Positions 10,058 through 30,554 are shown, counted from the first letter of the stretch. The stretch is 64,000 nt of DNA from Candidatus Poribacteria bacterium (GCA_965222225.1 CBDCTK010000002.1:960001-1024000), one strand, 5' to 3'. The notes: generated by a model not told the origin, from the letters alone. Made by a program: numbers and translations.

Positions 10058-10581
10058 CTATTCCCGCATTTTTTTATAATTCTCATAAGATCTTCGTGAC
10101 AAAAACTCCATCCGCTTTGCATGAGCAAGGTAACTGAGGTCTTCAGTATATCACTCGTGAACACTTTTGTCAATCTCGCGCCTGGGACCAGACAGGGGAA
10201 ACGAATCTGATTTTTCAGAATAGAGTTGCCAGAATAGTAGTCAAATAATTGTTATCCCGTGCGGCTTTGAGTCGTTTGTTGGCGACACCAAGTTTAGTTG
10301 ACGTTTCAGACTTGAGTAGATTGAGAGCAATGCGTCGAACAAAGGCAAACTTCTCACCGCTGTTATCTTCACGAATTCGAGACGCATCCTCACGGAAAGC
10401 AACATCCAATACCCAATGACATGAGTTCTCAATCCGCCAGTGATGCCTGGTGGCTTCAAGCAACTTAGCCGCATCGCCGGGAAGCGAAGAAATGTAGTAG
10501 CGTGTCTCGCTGCCTACCTATTGGTCGGCTTCTCGCTGAGCGGTGACTGTGACGACGGCGTTGAGATTAGTGACACCCTCA

Positions 10582-10694
10582 GGAATTTCTATCGCAGGAT
10601 TTGCTATCGCGCGCTCTATTCGCTTGCTTGATCCCCTTGTTCAGTCGCTCGATTGGTCACTAGTCGTTCCTTTGATCGTTATCCACTCCCTTGA
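10582..10694 (-). repeat. Modular TCAAG...GCGATAG micro-insertion, copy 1 (4+2 modules), inside ISAs1 transposase
   Basis: Reverse complement reads TCAAGGGAGTGGATAACGA TCAAAGG... TCGAGCGACTGAAC... TCAAGCAAGCG... GCGATAGCAAATCC TGCGATAGAAATTCC. Confidence 0.8.
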
Positions 10695-10905
10695 TCGGTG
10701 CGGGTTTCAATACGTCCATGATCGCCGTCAATTGTTTGGTTCAAGTTGACTTCAACATCTCTTAACTCGCCAGTTGAGACGCCATCAAACAGAAGTTGAA
10801 CATCTTCATACAACTGTCCTCGATTGGCTTTTAGCGCGAAAACGTAATCGGCATCTGAATCCACAACGGTTTGAACGATGTCGGTTTGACAGCCCATCGC
10901 ATCAA

Positions 10906-10940
10906 GGGATCTCTATCGCACTCGCTGTCCACTCGCTTGA
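10906..10940 (-). repeat. Modular micro-insertion, copy 2 (minimal, 35 nt)
   Basis: TCAAGCGAGTGGACAGCGAGTGCGATAGAGATCCC; removing it restores IVTVDAMGCQ. Confidence 0.85.
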
Positions 10941-11966
10941 CAGTAACAATGTCCCCTGAAACCTCCAAAACCTCAAGCAACTGCGGAATGGCTGGTATCT
11001 CATTCGACTTGTCGGCGACTTTAATTTGCCCTAGTGCCACGCCTTGATGGCACGCCCACGCACTAACCAGGTGAATTGCTGATTTGTTGTTATGGGTTGC
11101 ATGGGAACGACGCAGTTGTTTTCCATCAACCGCAATCACTTGGCCTTGCGTGACTTCAATGGCGCTACGAATCCAGTTGATGAAACACTCCTCGAATTTC
11201 GTGGCATCTATCGCACCAAACACACGCCTGAATGTACCATGCGATGGGATGCCTTTTGGTAATTCCAAGAACTCAGCTAGCCACTTATACTTGGCGCCTC
11301 CGTATGCTACAACTGCTACCCAACTATCGGCGCCGCAAATAACCGTGCAGACAGTAATGACAACACTATCACGCAATCTATGCGGCGTGCGACAATCAAC
11401 TCGACTGGGGTCTGGCGATGAGCCAAAATGGGATCGTTAATCTCTAATCAACGACTAGCTTTACTCTAATATTGAGGAAATCGGGGGATTAGACAGGGTT
11501 CTACTCCTTAGAAGATTTTGCACAAGCTTAGCGCAATTTCCTCTCATGTCATGTCCACAATTTAGATGCGTTTCCCCTGAACTGTCTTGCTGGCTGCAAT
11601 ACTGCTAGGACTATTTTTAGCGTCCACCTACCTTGTGGACAGTATGAAAGCCTTATTCCTGAGAATACTGATTCTTAATGCCGCAAACGGGTGGGGCCAA
11701 TCGCCAGAATGGGTTTGGTTGGAGTGGTCTCGCGCATTGCCGGTTGTACGTTTTTTGCTGTTGTGTTAAAATGAGGCATTCAAATATCGTATTCTTAAGA
11801 GCACACGCATTCATGATTTACCAATTTGCTTTCTAGCAGTAATGTTCATAATCTATCATTTCAAGAACGGGAAACGCAGGGATGAGTCTCGAAGCACATC
11901 AAAACGTCGAGTTGCATGAGTCCCCATCGGCAAATTGGATCAAAATAGCGCCTCGGAGGAAAATAA

Positions 11967-17920: not shown

Positions 17921-18190
17921 CTAGCAGAGAGCAAAAATCAGCAATATCGATGTTATCACCAAGATGTTCGAACACGGATGTTCGAACACGGATTTTGCCT
18001 TTTCGATAGTGCCGTAGTAGATTTCTAATTCAGCGCCAAGCCCGAGAATGTTGGATATTGTATTGGGAGGACCGCCATCGTGGGAAGTTCGGCGGGCGTA
18101 AATGACGGCGTAATCATCGCCTTCGTCGTCAATGCTCAGTTCGAATTCGAAGTTAATACGCTTGGTTAATTGGCGTTCTGCATCGCTCAT
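17921..18190 (-). CDS. Small hypothetical protein (phage-like)
   Basis: RBS GGAGG; a 14-bp tandem duplication at 17963-17990 probably alters the C-terminus. Confidence 0.5.
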   Translation of the reverse strand: MSDAERQLTKRINFEFELSIDDEGDDYAVIYARRTSHDGGPPNTISNILGLGAELEIYYGTIEKAKSVFEHPCSNILVITSILLIFALC

Positions 18191-23390: not shown

Positions 23391-24179
23391 ATGGAATACT
23401 TTAAATTCTTGTCGGGTCACACCATGCCCGCTTTGGGATTGGGCACATGGGATCTGCGGGACCAACAATGCAAAACCGTGGTCAAACAAGCCGTTGAAAT
23501 GGGATATACTCATATTGATACCGCATGGATGTATGCGAATCAGAGTGAGATTGGTGAAGCCCTTCAAGAGATTGGGGTAAAACGCCACGAACTGTTCATA
23601 ACCTCGAAAATTTGGCATACGCACATGGATCGCAATAGCGTGCTCTCACAGTGCGATGAAGGCCTGGATCAACTACAGATGGATTACGTGGACCTTTTAC
23701 TCATCCACTCACCAAATCATAACGTGCCATTTGAAGAAACCCTCGGCGCCTTCAAAGAAATTTTTGATGCAGGCAAAGCCAAGAGTATCGGTATCAGCAA
23801 CTTCAACAGTGACCAAGTCGATCGCGCGCGAAACGTCTCCGCGGTGCCCATCAGTGCAAACCAAGTGGAATACAATGTTCACCATAACCGAGAGGCACTG
23901 CTACAACACTGCACGAAATATCGAATACACGTCACCGCACATCGTCCTTTGGCAAAAGGGGAAATCGGAGATGAGCGCCTTCTGAACGACATCGCGAAAA
24001 GACACGGAAAGACCGCGGCACAAGTTGCCATGCGCTGGCTTCTGCAGAAGGGAATCAGCGTTATCCCCAAGTCCGGCTCCAGAGAACACTTGAAAGAAAA
24101 CCTTGACCTGTTCGATTGGGAACTAAGCCCCGCGGAAATGAAGCAGATTGATAATCTTAGCGATCAAATGAGCGAATAG
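23391..24179 (+). CDS. Aldo/keto reductase
   Basis: LGLGTW, HIDTAWMY, ITSKIW, IGISNF, IPKS. Confidence 0.93.
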   Translation: MEYFKFLSGHTMPALGLGTWDLRDQQCKTVVKQAVEMGYTHIDTAWMYANQSEIGEALQEIGVKRHELFITSKIWHTHMDRNSVLSQCDEGLDQLQMDYVDLLLIHSPNHNVPFEETLGAFKEIFDAGKAKSIGISNFNSDQVDRARNVSAVPISANQVEYNVHHNREALLQHCTKYRIHVTAHRPLAKGEIGDERLLNDIAKRHGKTAAQVAMRWLLQKGISVIPKSGSREHLKENLDLFDWELSPAEMKQIDNLSDQMSE

Positions 24180-24180
24180 A

Positions 24181-24229
24181 TCAAGCGACTGAATACGGAG
24201 CGCGATAGAGTTCCCGTGCGATAGAGATC
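24181..24229 (+). repeat. Modular micro-insertion, copy 3
   Basis: TCAAGCGACTGAATACGGAGCGCGATAGAGTTCCCGTGCGATAGAGATC. Confidence 0.8.
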
Positions 24230-24379
24230 TTACCAGCCTTTGAAAGCGCCAGCGGCTCGGCAGGTGTATAGCACATCAAGTCGCTCCGCACCCAAGCCCG
24301 AGCGCAGAGACAGATAATTCTAACTCGGACGCCCAACAAAAAGTTTGCCCCTATTCTTCAAACAGGTTCAGATATTTTT

Positions 24380-26920
24380 TCAATCCGTCATCGCTCCGCA
24401 AAACTCCGCAAGCGTACTTTCCAACTTCGTCCCTGCCGGCACATACGCTAGTATCAGCCCATCAATGACTTTGTCCGGATCCGGCACCACACCCGTAAAC
24501 CGCTCTGCCGTGATACCCTTGGAGAGTAACAGATAAAACGTATCGCGTTTTAACCCCTGCGTCGTGTAGAAATTCCCCTGCCCCTTTGAGATAATCAGTT
24601 CGGCATCTAGCAACACATTCACAAACGAGGGTGTCGCCTGATATAGATTCGTCCCTATGGTCTTGGATCCGGAAGAACACAAGGAAACCTCTCCGCCGTT
24701 GACCGCACTCCGAAGACCTTGGAACTGCGGCAGATTGACAATCTCCTCTAAATCAGTCAGAGTTACATCATTGCTCGCCGGGGCTGCTTTAACGACAATC
24801 GTAACTTGGTGTCCAAGATCGAGTAGCATTTGAATCAACCACAGGTCGAATACCGCTTCTCCATCATTGTCAATGAGCCAGACGAGGCGTTTGGGACTGC
24901 CTTCAATCACCTCGGACTGAAATTGTTCAAGACAGTCAATCGCAAGCAGAGCGTGAACGGCTTCCTGCAAAACACGGTTGAAGTAATCAGGCTGCTCCGC
25001 AAGTCTGGCAATGACCCTTGCGCTGCTATAGTCAATGATGTTTGCCGCAATAACGAGTTTCAATCGTTGCGTCCAGTCACAATCGGGAATTTGGTCGAGT
25101 AAGTTTAGCGCAGTCTGTCTAGCTTTCAGTTTATCTTTGCGGTACGGGTCCGGATTGCCGGTAGCGAGTGACACAACTTCAAAGATGACCCCCCAGATTT
25201 CTTCAGGTGTCAATTCATCAGTAACATAAGTACCATCCTCTTTCCGCATTTCCAGCAGGTCGTCGACAGCCTTTAACGCGACACGCCGTAGAGCGGGATT
25301 GCTGGTTGCGCGACCGATGAGTTCAGCATTAGAATGCGATCGGACGTGCCGACGCAGATTTTCCCAATCGGGTTTGTTACGCATCTCACCGAACGTGTAG
25401 ACCCCCGGAATATGCTCCGACACGACGAGTTGACCGAGAGCATCCGAAGTTTTCTCCGTCGAATCCGATTCCGTGTCTAATGGAAACAAGGGGGTGCCTA
25501 AATCTGCGGAACTGGGTACTCCCAATTCCCGGTGGTCAATTGACATGCCAGCCGGAACTACGGTTGCCGCCGCCTTCACGAATCTGAGATGCACTGCCCT
25601 TCCAACTTTTGCTCGATCAAATCGGCAGTTTTCAATCTCACTTAATACTCCCAACCCGGCAACCGGTGCCCCAATCTCTTCGGATAACGGATTAGATTCG
25701 AAGACCGTGTCCGTCGCCTTTACATCCTTCAAGCCAACGAGATCGCCAACCGCGGTGTTTCCTGACAACTCAACATTCTCCAAACGACAGTAGTTTCCAA
25801 TCCTGACTCCCTTGCCGAGATGGGTTCGCCCCAGAAAATAGCAGCCATTCCCAATTTCGATATCCTCGTTTGTCAGGGTAATCTGGGCGGCAGGGTCAAC
25901 TCGAACGCCTCTCTGAGCCAGCATAACCCTCGTTCTCGCGAATAGAGATTCTTCGCCTGCAATGAGATTCGACCACCGGTTGATGCCGGAAATTGCCTTC
26001 TCCGGATAGATATAGGCATGTGTCTTCAACCCATCCTCATAGCAGTACCGAATCAAATCGACATGATGAAGTTCAGAATTGCTGCCATGCGGCTGCAATC
26101 GGTTCATTCTGTCAATTGCCGCGCTGCTGCGAATTAGAGTAATGCCTGTATTCGTGTAGCCTTCCCCGCAATCCAGTCGTCGCGACATCTCGTTTTTCTC
26201 CCCATCCGTCATTTCTTTCCACTCTTTCGTGCCGACAAACCTGCCGTCTTGATCGAAAAACAGCCCTCCCTTGTCAATGACCGTTTCAGGGATTTTGCCG
26301 CAAAGCGTAACATCCGCTCCGCTGATAAAATGTGAAACGAGTGTTTGCAGATAAACCGCTTGGTTGAGAAACGGCTCGTCTCCAAACCCGACACCCATCC
26401 ACTCTGCGTCAGATGCTTGAACAGCGGGGATTGCCGCCTGTAATGCGCCTCCGGTACCGTTCTGTTCGGGTTGGACACAGAGGATGGCATTTGGTCCGCA
26501 CAGCCGATTGACTGCTTTCATGTCAAGTGCAGATGGAGGAATGACCCCATCAAGTAGTATTTCGCGCGTCACCAAACGTTCCGCCATCTTGGAATTGACG
26601 ACAATGATGTGCGGACGAGTTCCCGGAAGATAGCTGCGGGACACCTGCAACGTATTGTACTCACCGAACCACAGATCTAGGGTCTTGTTTAGACGACCTG
26701 ACGGATCGATTCGAGTACCCTGTCCGCCCGCCAGAATCACCCACTGTGGATCGAGCCACTGTGCTAGAACGTGCTCAACGTGTTGAGGCGCAATTGTGTC
26801 TAGAAACTGTTCAATTCGTCTGTCTGTCTCCCCTTTGTCTGGAATGCCGATAGCAGTTTCCAGATTACATCGGAGAATCGTTTCAACTGCGCGACGTAGC
26901 GTTGTGAGATTATTGTGCAT
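24380..26920 (-). CDS. Fusion: GlmU-like nucleotidyltransferase + partial left-handed beta-helix + DUF89/ARMT1-like phosphatase
   Basis: ILAGGQGTR, QPEQNGTGGA, GDEPFL, NTGI; hexapeptide repeats; DPYRKDK, ANIIDY, DNDGEAVFD, NDVT, SKGQGN. Start moved from 27001 because that codon lies in a REP. Confidence 0.75.
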   Translation of the reverse strand: MHNNLTTLRRAVETILRCNLETAIGIPDKGETDRRIEQFLDTIAPQHVEHVLAQWLDPQWVILAGGQGTRIDPSGRLNKTLDLWFGEYNTLQVSRSYLPGTRPHIIVVNSKMAERLVTREILLDGVIPPSALDMKAVNRLCGPNAILCVQPEQNGTGGALQAAIPAVQASDAEWMGVGFGDEPFLNQAVYLQTLVSHFISGADVTLCGKIPETVIDKGGLFFDQDGRFVGTKEWKEMTDGEKNEMSRRLDCGEGYTNTGITLIRSSAAIDRMNRLQPHGSNSELHHVDLIRYCYEDGLKTHAYIYPEKAISGINRWSNLIAGEESLFARTRVMLAQRGVRVDPAAQITLTNEDIEIGNGCYFLGRTHLGKGVRIGNYCRLENVELSGNTAVGDLVGLKDVKATDTVFESNPLSEEIGAPVAGLGVLSEIENCRFDRAKVGRAVHLRFVKAAATVVPAGMSIDHRELGVPSSADLGTPLFPLDTESDSTEKTSDALGQLVVSEHIPGVYTFGEMRNKPDWENLRRHVRSHSNAELIGRATSNPALRRVALKAVDDLLEMRKEDGTYVTDELTPEEIWGVIFEVVSLATGNPDPYRKDKLKARQTALNLLDQIPDCDWTQRLKLVIAANIIDYSSARVIARLAEQPDYFNRVLQEAVHALLAIDCLEQFQSEVIEGSPKRLVWLIDNDGEAVFDLWLIQMLLDLGHQVTIVVKAAPASNDVTLTDLEEIVNLPQFQGLRSAVNGGEVSLCSSGSKTIGTNLYQATPSFVNVLLDAELIISKGQGNFYTTQGLKRDTFYLLLSKGITAERFTGVVPDPDKVIDGLILAYVPAGTKLESTLAEFCGAMTD

Positions 26921-26981
26921 TCTATTTGAACGACCGTTTAACTCATTCCAGATCTTAAGAGCCTGTTTGAAAAGTACATTT

Positions 26982-27192
26982 GTAGGGTGCGCACTGCGCA
27001 CCGGCGTCTAATAGCCCTTGAGGGGCGGAAGGTGTATAGAAACGCCAAAACCCCGTGCACCTATGCCCCAGCGGAGATCAAGCGAGTGGATAACGATCAA
27101 GCGACTGAATAAGGAGCGCGATAGAAATCCCGTGCGATAGAAATCCCTCTCCCGGTCGCGACCTTCTGTCGCGAGCAAAACTCGCTCCTACA
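26982..27192. repeat. REP-like cluster
   Basis: GTAG-GGTGCGC-ACT-GCGCACC hairpin, GCCCC(T/A)-type units with GGTGTATAG (also ~24247-24320), and CGCTCCTACA. Confidence 0.6.
27078..27147 (+). repeat. Modular micro-insertion, copy 4 (2+2 modules)
   Basis: TCAAGCGAGTGGATAACGA TCAAGCGACTGAATAAG GAGCGCGATAGAAATCCC GTGCGATAGAAATCCC. Confidence 0.85.
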
Positions 27193-27305
27193 GTAGACGC
27201 GCAGTGAGTGAGAATTCCGTCTTCAATTGATGATTAAAGATCACTACTCCAAACCGAACTTCATAATACCATTTCGTTTGAATAACAGTGCATAGGATAT
27301 TTTTA

Positions 27306-28554
27306 GGGACTTAGTAGTTAACTGCTTTTTGGTCGATTTGCTTGCTTTTCTCTTCTTAATGTACAATCATTTTAGACAGTGTTCGGAATCTTGATTCACA
27401 CTAAAATACATCTCTATAAGAGAGAAATGGAGGCATATCATGTTGACCAAGCGTTTGTACATGCTCGCGGGAGCATTGCGGGTTATCTGCGGGATTTTAA
27501 TTTCCAACACTATGGGATTTTCAGCACACCATGATGTTGTCGTTGACAGAATATACCGATAGCCAAACAATTCATGTGGCTCAGGTGAAGCATTCATCAA
27601 AAAATCTTATGAAAATCTCATCATCTTTTCTGCGATTATATTTCCAGCAAGACTCCATGATATACAGTGGCAGCCACTTCTTGCTGTAGTGATGATGCGT
27701 TCCGTAGAATGACCTCTTGACACAAGCCCAAAACGACTCGATGGTGTTGGTGTGAGTTACGCCGTCCTCAGAAACATATCTCTCTTGGTGATGGATAACA
27801 TGTCTTTCGATATCTTCGTCCAGACTATTGTAAGAGCGAAATTCATCAGTCATAAGAATAGACTCATCGGGTGAGACATTGCTAAGGATGAATTCTCTGA
27901 TATTTTCACCAGATAGAACCTTCATGAATTTAGCAACCACCCGACCGCCTCTCTCGACTACGCCGATGACGGGAGATTTATTTGTGCCTCTACCTCTCTT
28001 AGATTTTGCTCTGGGTTTGCCGCCGACATAGGTTTCGTCCGCTTCAACTATCCCTTTCAGCAATTCATCACTATCACTCATTTTCTCACGGAGGCGCATT
28101 GCCATATACCAAGCGGACTTTTGATTCATGTCCAAGTCACGAGCAAGCTGACAACTCGATATGCTTTTCTTGGCATTGGAAAGAATTGAGATAGCCAAAA
28201 ACCATTTCTGGAGAGGTATCTTGGTACCATGGAAGATGGTTCCTGCTGTAGCCGAAAAGCTAGATTCACAATCGTAGCAATTCCAACCAGTAGTAATGTC
28301 GTTTTTGTTCTTGCGTCCAACTTTTTCACTGCCACAGTGGATACAGCAAACACCGTCCTTCCAACGTTTTTCCTCTATAAATCTGAGACAAGATTCTTGA
28401 TTTGGAAACTCTTTCATAAGATTCAAAATGTCCATAGCAAACTCCTACGAGAAGAATAGTCACTATGGACATCTACGTGTGACGAAAAGATTTACGACAG
28501 GGTACCAAGTTTTATGTTTGTCGTCAGTCTAAAAGCTACAAGCTACTAATTCCG
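27306..28554 (-). mobile_element. IS1595-family insertion sequence, apparently intact
   Basis: Imperfect 24-bp IRs (GGGACTTAGTAG... / CGGAATTAGTAG..., 17/24); perfect 8-bp duplication TATTTTTA at 27298-27305 and 28555-28562. Confidence 0.9.
27581..28435 (-). CDS. IS1595-family transposase
   Basis: Zn ribbon CIHC/CYDC, EADETYVGG, MTDEFRSY, HTNTIESFW. Confidence 0.95.
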   Translation of the reverse strand: MDILNLMKEFPNQESCLRFIEEKRWKDGVCCIHCGSEKVGRKNKNDITTGWNCYDCESSFSATAGTIFHGTKIPLQKWFLAISILSNAKKSISSCQLARDLDMNQKSAWYMAMRLREKMSDSDELLKGIVEADETYVGGKPRAKSKRGRGTNKSPVIGVVERGGRVVAKFMKVLSGENIREFILSNVSPDESILMTDEFRSYNSLDEDIERHVIHHQERYVSEDGVTHTNTIESFWACVKRSFYGTHHHYSKKWLPLYIMESCWKYNRRKDDEIFIRFFDECFT

Positions 28555-28592
28555 TATTTTTATTATATCATTATCTTTCTCGTGGGCGGGGA

Positions 28593-28663
28593 TTAAACTA
28601 GTGAATAACGATCAAGCGAACGGATAGTGAGTGCGATAGAAAGTCCCGTGCGATAGAGATCCC
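28593..28663 (+). repeat. Modular micro-insertion, copy 5, splitting a palindrome
   Basis: TTAAACTAGTGAATAACGA TCAAGCGAACGGATAGTGAGTGCGATAGAAAGTCCC GTGCGATAGAGATCCC between GGCGGGG and CCCCGCC. Confidence 0.8.
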
Positions 28664-28830
28664 CTTGCCCCCGCCTTGGAAAGACTTGATTGACGCTATT
28701 TATTCACTTCAAATATAGAGAAATGGTATAAGTCCTAAACAGTAATGCCCAATTCTCAGAAAAGCCTTAAGTCCCAAACCGAATCGTCGAACTTTGTCGT
28801 GATGGCGGGCAGGCGGATCTCAATGCCGGC

Positions 28831-30554
28831 TCAAAGCTCCGGGACCTCAAACACCGCTTCAAAGCGTGCATCTCCCTCGTCAAAATGGTAGCTGTACCTC
28901 ACGCCCATATCCCATGGGATGAACAGTGAAAAGAGTCGAAAATCGAAGGTCAGCTCGGCACCCGCCGTCTGATAGGTAGTGTGCTGAGACCCGTCCTTGC
29001 CCAAGCCGAAGTCGTAAAAAAAGTTGGACTTGATACGCTGGAGGTACACCAACGCCCCCAAGTTCCAGTCCGGGTAGAACAGCGGCAAGGCATAGTTGGC
29101 CGACCCCTGATAGAAGTGGCGATGGAAGTGGTAGTCGTAGCCGCGGACAAAGACCTGTTCGCTTGCAAAACGGTAGAGATTGGCATCATCTTGCCACTCG
29201 TAAGTACCCTTCAGTCGCAGGCTGTGGTGAGCCCAGAGACCGGGAAAGGTCAACCCCAGCCGCCCTGACAACAAGGTGACGTCGTAGTCGCCCGGAAAGG
29301 GCGTGTGGCGGTAGGTCAGTTGCAAACTCTGGCTCCAGGCCGGGGCCAGATCGCGCTTTGCCTTATGGCGCGACCGAGATAAGGCGAGCTGGTACGACAC
29401 CGGCGCAAAACGCCGGTTCAGGTTTTCCTTGAACAAGCCGCTTGTATCGGGATGGTTTGGGTCGTTCTCGTCGGTGATATCGGTCAACTCTGCCTTTACG
29501 CTCAAATTGGCGGAAGAACTCCAGGGGCCACGGGATAAATTCAAGGGCACTTCGACGACGGCATGCAGGCTCTTTTCGGTCCACTTCTCAGTGATTTCCT
29601 CTATGTCAGTGTCGTCTTTAGTACCATCTTCCTCTTCGATTTCGTAGGCTCCGATCCGCTTGCCCCAGCGTCCACCCACGCTGAAAATGGGATACGACGC
29701 CGACAAGCTGAAATCGCCCAAGACGCTGAAGGCGTCCTCGTTGCTATTGTATTCGACCCCGCTGGTCAAGCTGCTGAGATCGAGCAAATCACTGGACGTG
29801 AGTTTGAGGGAGTGGTTTGCCCCGTCTGTCCGAGGAGCCCAGCTGTGGATCTTGAGCAGATGGCCCAGTGGTCGATAGCGGCGTACCGGGTAGACCTGCC
29901 GAGGGATGTTCACCAATACGCTGCCGCCCTGCTCTTGGTCAATCAGCGGTTCGTAATAGCGTACACGGCGATCCACTACCTGCTCGATCGGTGTCCAGGT
30001 CGTCGGGTCTAGAGGCATGACCGCGATGCGGTAGCCGTCAACAGTGTAATCCTCGAACAGGAGCGAATCGCCGTACACGGACACATGGGTGGCAGCCAGT
30101 GGTCGAGAGGTCACCTGGTAGTGGGCCCCGCTCGATAGGTGGACAGCGTGGATATTGTCGATACCCGAATAGGGCGAGTCGAAAAGCAGGTAGGAACCCC
30201 AGAAAATCGGCCAGCCAATCTCGTCGCGGGTGTGCGGCAATACAATCTGCCCCTCACCATCGACAACATCAATGTGCTCAAGCGCGTTGCCGCGTGCGTC
30301 CTGCCGCACGACAGCGATATGGCGCCCGCGTCCTCCGAACCCACGCCGGCGTGCGCCAATACACCCCGTCGGGGGCTGGAAAACGCGCCTGCTCCGCGCC
30401 ACTGGCTGTTTCCAACAGCACCAAGTGGCAGCCGCCGGTCCACGCCGGGCGGGGTTTGCCCCGAGAAAAAGTTTTGCTGCGCGAACGACGGGCGGGCAAT
30501 CAGCACCGCCAGCGCAATTGCTACCAGCGTCTTGGTTATCATCATAGCCATCAT
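28831..30554 (-). pseudogene. Internally deleted and frameshifted TolB-like propeller + outer-membrane beta-barrel protein
   Basis: Signal peptide and GQTPPGVD joined out of frame to propeller sequence (CHLVLLETASG...WRTPAW), then a barrel-like C-terminus; visibly higher GC. Confidence 0.6.

Follow-up and report, generated by a model that had tools for sequence, protein, structure and literature searches.

A 35-36-nt hairpin element that nests within its own copies in Candidatus Poribacteria

The commonest repeat of this Candidatus Poribacteria chromosome is a single element of 35-36 nt, here called E, which comprises (A)TCAA, a mini-hairpin and GCGATAGARATCC(C). The genome (5.70 Mb in two contigs, 50% G+C) contains 561 strict matches and about 1,200-1,500 loose units. 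Sites that otherwise match either have or lack E as a discrete unit, and show no target duplication. New copies enter older ones at points from the loop to the beginning of the GCGATAG half, and for the most part share their orientation. It is probably a mobile, self-nesting hairpin element, and we hold this reading, which names no enzyme, with good confidence. The window is the whole stretch of DNA that was analysed, 64,000 nt in length (C2:960001-1024000). The original prediction described a family of micro-insertions in the window, built from two ordered modules, A and B. These are the 5′ and 3′ halves of a single E, and not independent units.

All five copies that had been claimed in the window are present at their predicted positions. 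Module B (GCGATAGARATCCC, with up to 2 mismatches) has 9 matches in the window against 0.95 expected, eight of them inside the five copies, and 0/100 shuffles reach 9. For the core of module A (TCAANNGANNGRAYANNGA, with up to 2 mismatches) there are 16 matches against 6.8 expected, and again 0/100 shuffles reach that number; 11 of the 16 fall inside the five copies, among them all six exact ones. Across the genome there are 1519 matches to module A and 1204 to module B, compared with 4 and 29 in a reversed-sequence control. A separate genome search gave 1166 matches to module B, and the most frequent 12-mers of the chromosome are derived from B.

In full, E reads GATCAA N1N2 GA N3N4 GRAYA N4′N3′ GA N2′N1′ GCGATAGARATCC(C), where the primed positions are the reverse complement of the unprimed. 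The hairpin (N1N2-GA-N3N4 / GRAYA loop / N4′N3′-GA-N2′N1′) is based upon 2 bp, a tandem G.A and a further 2 bp; the two GA steps of the stem face each other, and the tandem G.A is invariant. Information content is at background beyond about G-S-G/ATCAA...ATCC(C) in 628 simple copies, which sets the limits of the element. Among 770 copies anchored on the constant letters only, the four stem pairs are Watson–Crick or G.T in 91-97%, compared with only 50-78% on shuffling partners, and three or four pair types occur at each pair. Among 62 distinct copies taken from other genomes, 96.8% of stem cells are paired against 64.4% after shuffling (0/500 as high), and 96 cells are altered on both sides against 17.5, with all four pairs affected. 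Slid-register controls on the same copies give 22-62%. The wobbles are markedly asymmetric, with G.T and A.C counted as 149 and 24 at pair 1 and as 105 and 12 at pair 4, so that the GATCAA strand is the one on which structure is kept. Nearest-neighbour folding of the hairpin as DNA gives -1.8 kcal/mol, not above shuffles (z = +0.5), and single and nested copies folded as DNA on both strands show no gain over shuffles (z = -0.07 to +0.63). What supports the hairpin is covariation and not predicted stability; sheared G.A pairs or a protein partner may lie behind it.

Two copies in the window are on the minus strand, within an ISAs1-family transposase pseudogene (10215-11376, minus strand). One is a single complete E of 35 nt (10906-10940) with TCAA, the hairpin GC-GA-GT / GGACA / GC-GA-GT and then GCGATAGAGATCCC. 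The other is a long array (10582-10696) with four A and two B halves. Starting at its 5′ end, A1 (10696-10676), A2 (10675-10655), A3 (10654-10634) and A4 (10633-10611) are followed by the B half of A4 (10610-10597) and then by that of A3 (10596-10582). A4 with its B is nested within A3, while A1 and A2 form a block of 42 nt without B halves of their own.

The three plus-strand copies each contain an inner E within an outer one. In the first, the 5′ part of the outer E (24162-24180; GATCAA AT GA GC GAATA G) is interrupted by a complete inner E of 35 nt (24181-24215; TCAA GC GA CT GAATA CG GA GC GCGATAGAGTTCCC), after which the 3′ remainder of the outer E (24216-24231) resumes with GT, pairing with the outer AT with one wobble, and continues as GCGATAGAGATCTT. 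The last five codons (DQMSE) and the stop codon of an aldo/keto reductase gene (23391-24179) come from this array (24162-24180). In the second copy the outer 5′ part (27076-27096) reads GATCAA GC GA GT GGATA AC GA, and the inner E of 35 nt (27097-27131) enters straight after the second GA, placing it in class p3 (defined below). The outer remainder (27132-27147) begins with GT, closing the GC with one wobble, followed by GCGATAGAAATCCC; the array as a whole reads GATCAAGCGAGTGGATAACGA, the 35-nt inner E, and GTGCGATAGAAATCCC. The outer 5′ part of the third copy is slightly decayed (28591-28611; GATTAA AC TA GT GAATA AC GA), and lies within the loop of a GGGCGGGG...CCCCCGCC hairpin (family GTAGGCGG..TGCCCCGC). 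Its inner E (28612-28647) is 36 nt long, with one additional base in the B half, and the outer remainder is GT GCGATAGAGATCCC (28648-28663).

The copies had been described as one to four A units followed by one or two B units. The counts are 4A+2B at 10582-10696 (minus strand), 1A+1B at 10906-10940 (minus strand) and 2A+2B in each plus-strand copy. Some borders move: the copy placed at 28593 begins at 28591, the long copy begins at 10696, and the copy placed at 24181 has an additional, interrupted A unit upstream (24162-24180). The description of units that differ within a copy and recur elsewhere is borne out. The rule that A always precedes B holds in 5/5 window copies, but genome-wide it describes 818 of the 924 arrays with both tokens, the rest being tandem or mixed (ABAB or BA, for example).

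The nesting seen in the window is general. We classified what comes after each GATCAA-NN-GA seed in the genome (1261 seeds), of which 582 begin plain A+B units. A new TCAA comes right after the loop GA in 43 (class p2), after the second stem GA in 25 (class p3) and after the first GA in three, and a further GATCAA comes after a complete hairpin in 71. Where an E is interrupted, the 3′ half of the outer hairpin resumes behind the inner E with the right complement, and 83 of 94 outer stem pairs split by an inner E are paired. By strict matching a recognisable outer E surrounds 45 of 644 inner elements, compared with 8-11 when flanks are taken from different arrays. Nine p3 arrays are informative; six are nested, none is crossed and three are neither. 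B halves truncated at the 5′ end ((C/T)GATAG.. or ATAG..) are found after A-A-B runs in 32/49 cases against 75/472 for lone AB, as expected if the inner E entered at the start of the outer B. Insertion is concentrated at three places, namely the loop, the second GA and the opening bases of GCGATAG. Since each of these has the 5′ half on one side and the 3′ tail on the other, 5′ halves pile up on the left and tails on the right. The 818 arrays of A+B+ form include 504 AB, 99 ABB, 82 AABB and 44 AAB; A halves are in excess in 61 and B halves in 164. Neighbouring copies up to 100 nt apart are on the same strand in 188 cases and on opposite strands in 26. Repeated insertion of the elements into themselves, one of two origins offered in the original prediction, is thus supported by complete copies inside older ones with their split pairs kept and a nested rather than crossed arrangement, and also by an empty site kept in an ISAs1 paralogue.

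The ISAs1 pseudogene is broken by the 35-nt insertion, by the long array and by an in-frame TAG. Aligned with the profile NF033564 (314 positions) it is divided into pieces 2-142, 146-212 and 229-314. No profile position is lost at the 35-nt copy (142 then 146). At the long array the piece with HGRIETRT ends at position 212 and the next begins at 229, so that transposase codons are indeed missing there, as had been suspected, and number 16. A paralogue at C2:1828400-1830000 is 83-93% identical to the window pseudogene. Where the window has GTTACTG, the 35 nt and TTGATGCG, the paralogue is empty, with GTTACTA passing directly into TTGATGCG (GTTACTATTGATGCG). The 35-nt E is a clean gain without target duplication, and shifts the frame. 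At the long-array site both paralogues carry arrays at one junction, after CCCGCACC, with an A3/A4/B/B core and the 16-position loss in common; the paralogue is without A1+A2 (42 nt) and carries about 120 nt more on the 3′ side. The ISAs1-family element is present as three decayed copies (window 10215-11376, C2:949850-950650 and C2:1828400-1830000), and one of the three is heavily deleted.

Empty and occupied forms differing by 33-35 nt are also found in four other repeat families. The REP family in which TGTAGGAGCGA meets TCTCCGAA (TCTCC... on the far side of the junction) gains exactly TCAA..ATCCC. In GTAGGGTGCG[CA]CTGCGC, in GTAGGCGGGG[CAT]CTTGCCCC and between CACTGCG and CACC the insert is ATCAA..ATCC(C), with 0-3 target bases replaced. 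Junctions come after a G, with a few bases of variation: TCAA..ATCCC enters after GA in some places, and ATCAA..ATCC between G and C in others. Two duplicated targets were considered and rejected: GATC is inconsistent with the GTAGGAGCGATCTCC family, and TC is consistent with that family only.

E arrays are largely intergenic, with 549 of 641 outside long ORFs, though such ORFs make up 81% of the chromosome. A GTAG lies within 22 nt upstream of 368 of 921 arrays, compared with 5% at random positions, and E is often located within the loop or the 3′ arm of the GTAG REPs of this genome. Complementary flanks of at least 5 bp surround 31 of 190 isolated copies, where controls give 6-10/190; hairpins are therefore favoured by E but not required. 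The stronger proposal, that E always lies in a hairpin loop, was ruled out on the same count.

The orientation of E is independent of neighbouring genes: in tandem gene pairs it agrees with them in 189 cases and opposes them in 178. With GC skew taken as a noisy proxy for replication direction (its curve in this assembly is irregular), the GATCAA strand falls on the C-rich strand in 408 cases against 219 overall, and in 296 against 122 where the absolute skew is at least 0.02. The bias is present in every gene configuration. It is kept by the numerous copies without GTAG within 40 nt upstream (209 against 115), and E-free GTAG REPs have a similar one (73:30, 48:26 and 47:16; control repeat 42:46). 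E orientation ignores genes and tracks GC skew, which points to a process at the level of DNA rather than RNA. Cumulative GC skew along the C2 chromosome has several sign changes and does not form two arms, while gene orientation still tracks the local skew; this irregularity points to rearrangements or assembly joins.

The strict pattern of E is found in 17 of the 151 Poribacteria genomes sampled, and the reversed pattern in none. In the genus of the window it is present in 9/9 genomes (330-859 copies each), and in one genus of another family in 4/4 (114-137 copies each). High-copy E is limited to these two genera; one further genome has 14 copies and three have 1-2, and in the largest family sampled E is found in 0/100 genomes. 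Public records with the strict 30-nt pattern are all 'Candidatus Poribacteria bacterium' MAGs among the matches listed. The loci of 7/9 relatives could be anchored at the 3′ end of the aldo/keto reductase. Five (G019, G115, G103, G082 and G031) have E-type sequence at the same nucleotide as the window array, with different variants and numbers, and two (G017 and G151) have no E there and a different protein terminus. Contigs from two other public samples (runs X5 and X12) span 24162-24231 with no indel, so no recent insertion between strains is seen at the one array bridged in this way. At orthologous and paralogous arrays the junction is kept and the differences are of whole units. Together the bridged array and the loci of relatives indicate that the arrays are real, that they stay stable when divergence is about 1%, and that at about 15% they have been reshaped by whole units. 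The original prediction had raised a library adapter or an assembly artefact; E is neither, since independent samples and 16 other sampled genomes carry the family.

Contigs of 4/4 other samples contain a join that skips 10648-10689 (42 nt; 41 nt in X5). This was rejected as an empty allele, the joined form being paralogue sequence with short sides (32-57 nt). Joins skipping 10906-10940 were not seen among the matches listed for contigs of the four other samples, and many of the loose contig ends at E borders are other copies of E. At window position 17963, 14 nt are absent from the contigs of 4/4 other samples, a strain difference unrelated to E.

The genome has five matches to Y1_Tnp (PF01797), comprising one IS200-like gene (157 aa, with HUH and Tyr present) and four RAYT-like genes or fragments. 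Three of these (Y1a, Y1c and Y1e) each lie between inward-facing copies of E. Identification of a RAYT by its E flanks was rejected, as the flanking is not conserved beyond this genome: among four intact orthologues of the Y1e type (G010, G131, G103 and G019) 0/4 have E within 700 nt, and all four have GTAG REPs of their own. Across the Y1 loci of five other genomes (27 in all), an inverted E downstream is frequent in the IS200-like Y1a type alone, and this E lies inside a different inverted repeat (AAGCCCCAGCGGGGCGACAGGT) that brackets the gene. Three Y1 clades occur in 94, 49 and 81 of the 151 genomes and E in 17, giving no phyletic fit; in this sample many genomes with these clades are without E, and some E-rich genomes are without the clades. 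The IS200-like gene at C2:3080258-3080728 (minus strand) is intact, is bracketed by inverted copies of AAGCCCC.G.GGGGCGACAGGT and has homologues in 94/151 sampled Poribacteria; it looks like a tyrosine-transposase element with terminal inverted repeats. The only RVT_1 match in the genome is at C2:4500547-4501089 (minus strand), in an open frame of 679 aa.

E may be moved by a Y1 transposase, an assignment that we make tentatively. We infer it by analogy, because the hairpin, the lack of duplication and the strand bias are common to REPs. In this scheme a tyrosine HUH (Y1, RAYT/IS200-type) transposase, of the kind that serves the GTAG REPs of this genome, would act in trans and recognise E via the hairpin of the element, and E would move while DNA is being replicated, either as a single strand or into one. 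Favoured landing sites would be REP hairpins and the hairpin region of E itself, and unequal recombination or deletion between units could give arrays with unequal numbers of A and B. Some observations fit this scheme poorly. In several REP families 1-3 target bases are replaced, whereas known HUH strand transfer is more exact. The structured strand of E is mostly on the C-rich strand, that is the leading-strand template, and this placement argues, if anything, against a simple IS608-like model. Further misfits are the three of nine p3 arrays that are neither nested nor crossed, and the A1+A2 block without B halves.

It is rather doubtful, though well worth weighing, that the agent is not a REP-type Y1 but an enzyme or host process so far unconnected with mobile DNA, which would take the 17-nt G.A hairpin as its only signal and integrate a 35-nt single strand next to a G in other hairpins. 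E would then be among the smallest self-targeting mobile DNAs, with a recognition code of its own, and the patchy presence of E in two unrelated genera would reflect horizontal spread of the factor. Alternatively, E might not be mobile alone, but be a variable loop module of REP families spread by the REP machinery and by gene conversion. GTAG lies just upstream in 40% of arrays (368/921), and the replication-strand bias is common to E and E-free GTAG REPs. A composite of GTAGGGTGCG, the E variant AG/AT and CTGCGCACC is found about 15 times with the same variant, so that the composites were amplified as such. However, the lone 35-nt E in the transposase gene has no REP flanks and an empty paralogous site, E lies inside E at defined points, copies without an upstream GTAG keep their bias (209 against 115), and many different variants of E occur at one REP position, all of which makes the REP-module explanation improbable.

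That E is kept as a functional RNA, its hairpin binding a protein in the untranslated parts of transcripts and its mobility accounting for spread only, is quite improbable. Tandem G.A pairs are typical of RNA protein-binding motifs, the covariation is strong with G.U-type wobbles far exceeding A.C, and metatranscriptome runs contain much of the surrounding stretch (word shares 0.44-0.64). Against this stand an orientation that follows GC skew and not the neighbouring genes (189 against 178), and the presence of E copies in pseudogenes and in one another. Rfam 15 gives 0 matches at gathering score in the whole window, and with E values up to 10 over 24000-29000 there are four weak matches, none covering any copy of E. 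The original prediction also proposed iterative, slipping synthesis of the arrays on a short template (by a reverse transcriptase or primase-polymerase), and this is highly improbable. Unequal halves (61 arrays with more A and 164 with more B, out of 818), the 42-nt block of two A halves without B in the long copy and the junction variation of 1-3 nt would suit it. Yet adjacent units are different variants and their halves pair last-in-first-out, a bracket-like order unlike slippage; single complete units are cleanly inserted; and insertions in the loop split the hairpin while its two halves still match. No master locus was found, and the one RVT_1 match in the genome is weak (27.5 bits).

Among known systems, REP elements are reportedly associated with RAYT (Y1 HUH) transposases (Nunvar and others, in 2010). 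E is like REP/REPIN elements in being an imperfect palindrome in the range of 20-40 nt with hundreds of mostly extragenic copies, in its complementary stem changes and tolerance of G.T, and in its insertion in other palindromes and occasionally in genes. It has the replication-strand bias of the GTAG REPs in the same genome, which also has Y1 genes. Bertels and Rainey 2011 (PMC3116915) deal with REP/REPIN elements and RAYT transposases, and Di Nocera 2013 (PMC3733652) with complementary stem changes, REPs inside palindromic targets, REPs in ORFs, and BIMEs. Unlike a REP, E is without a GTAG/CGTC tag, having (G)ATCAA as its 5′ foot and GCGATAG on the 3′ side; GTAG near E, where seen, belongs to the REP that hosts it. 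The stem is just 2+2 bp around the invariant tandem G.A, and the long 3′ tail (GCGATAGARATCC) is conserved. Unlike REPINs, E occurs mostly as singles and direct nested stacks and not as inverted doublets (188 same against 26 opposite), and no RAYT gene of the three Y1 clades is consistently flanked by E or shares its distribution. E thus fails three of four REP/REPIN features: the tag, the cognate RAYT and the doublet form.

The ends of IS200/IS605 elements and PATEs are moved by TnpA (Y1) as single strands, and the IS200/IS605 type has two different subterminal hairpins and a defined target of 4-5 nt. E is similar to their miniatures in its putative hairpin-dependent recognition, the lack of target duplication, the replication-linked orientation bias and insertion beside a short fixed sequence (after G or GA). 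It differs in having one hairpin and junctions that vary by 1-3 nt, and its structured strand is opposite to the active strand predicted by the IS608 model. MITEs depend on DDE enzymes and have TIRs and a target-site duplication, unlike the empty and occupied sites of E, where there is no duplication; the ends of E offer only GGGATC/GATCCC-like sequence that is partly target. Ordered modules, in numbers that differ between copies, are a feature of pneumococcal BOX (A-Bn-C) and enterobacterial BIMEs. E shares this, but its order comes from the nesting of whole elements, last-in-first-out, and not from repetition of a middle box.

The very small SDR4-6 repeats of Nostoc and relatives (21-27 nt, in heterocystous cyanobacteria) are said by Elhai et al. 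in 2008 to be nested in other repeats. They are, like E, non-coding and apparently mobile, nested in other repeats and in each other, and are not known to have a dedicated mobilising enzyme; E differs in being 35-36 nt long and hosted by Poribacteria. The cyanobacterial precedent suggested in the original prediction is thus apt as an analogy, but the host here is a different one. The Elhai work on SDR repeats is cited as reference 43 in PMC3116915. By analogy E may work like a REP or a cyanobacterial small dispersed repeat. Literature searches gave no description of E or of Poribacteria REPs. Among the matches listed, papers on Poribacteria and palindromic repeats concern CRISPR or general genomics, Poribacteria appear in none on RAYT/REPIN/MITE/REP, and the motif words of E return only unrelated primer listings.

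As a probable mobile element, E sits at the lower size limit of mobile DNA. Its whole recognition signal is seemingly a 17-nt hairpin with a conserved tandem G.A, for which more than 1000 natural variants provide a mutational map, and because high-copy E is restricted to two Poribacteria genera, looking for the gene behind it is feasible. If a Y1 moves E, the acceptance of RAYT-type enzymes is widened to single units with no GTAG tag; if none does, E would stand for a new way in which DNA moves. The element builds nested arrays resembling brackets and remodels REP hairpins. It breaks or re-tails genes, as in the frameshift of the transposase and the new C-terminus and stop codon of the reductase, and its arrays confound gene calling and assembly in sponge-symbiont genomes.

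Other repeats lie close to the plus-strand arrays. A composite repeat of about 120-140 nt at window 26954-27075 comprises a GTAGGGTGCGCACTGCGCACC hairpin, AGCC..., a GCCCCAGCGGGGC hairpin and ...AGGTGTATAGCA. It is found at dozens of places in every genome of the genus, and several fixed points within it take E insertions. Halves of different REP families are sometimes joined across an E array; at 26954-27075 a CCCCAGCGGA 5′ flank is found with a TCTCCCGGTCGCGAC 3′ flank. E arrays also flank, on both sides, an IS1595-family element at 27299-28564, which encodes a transposase of 284 aa with a zinc-ribbon N-terminus (minus strand, 27581-28435). At least 29 more copies of 99-100% identity are located elsewhere in the genome, with copies of 90-97% in three other genomes of the genus, and this looks like a currently active IS.
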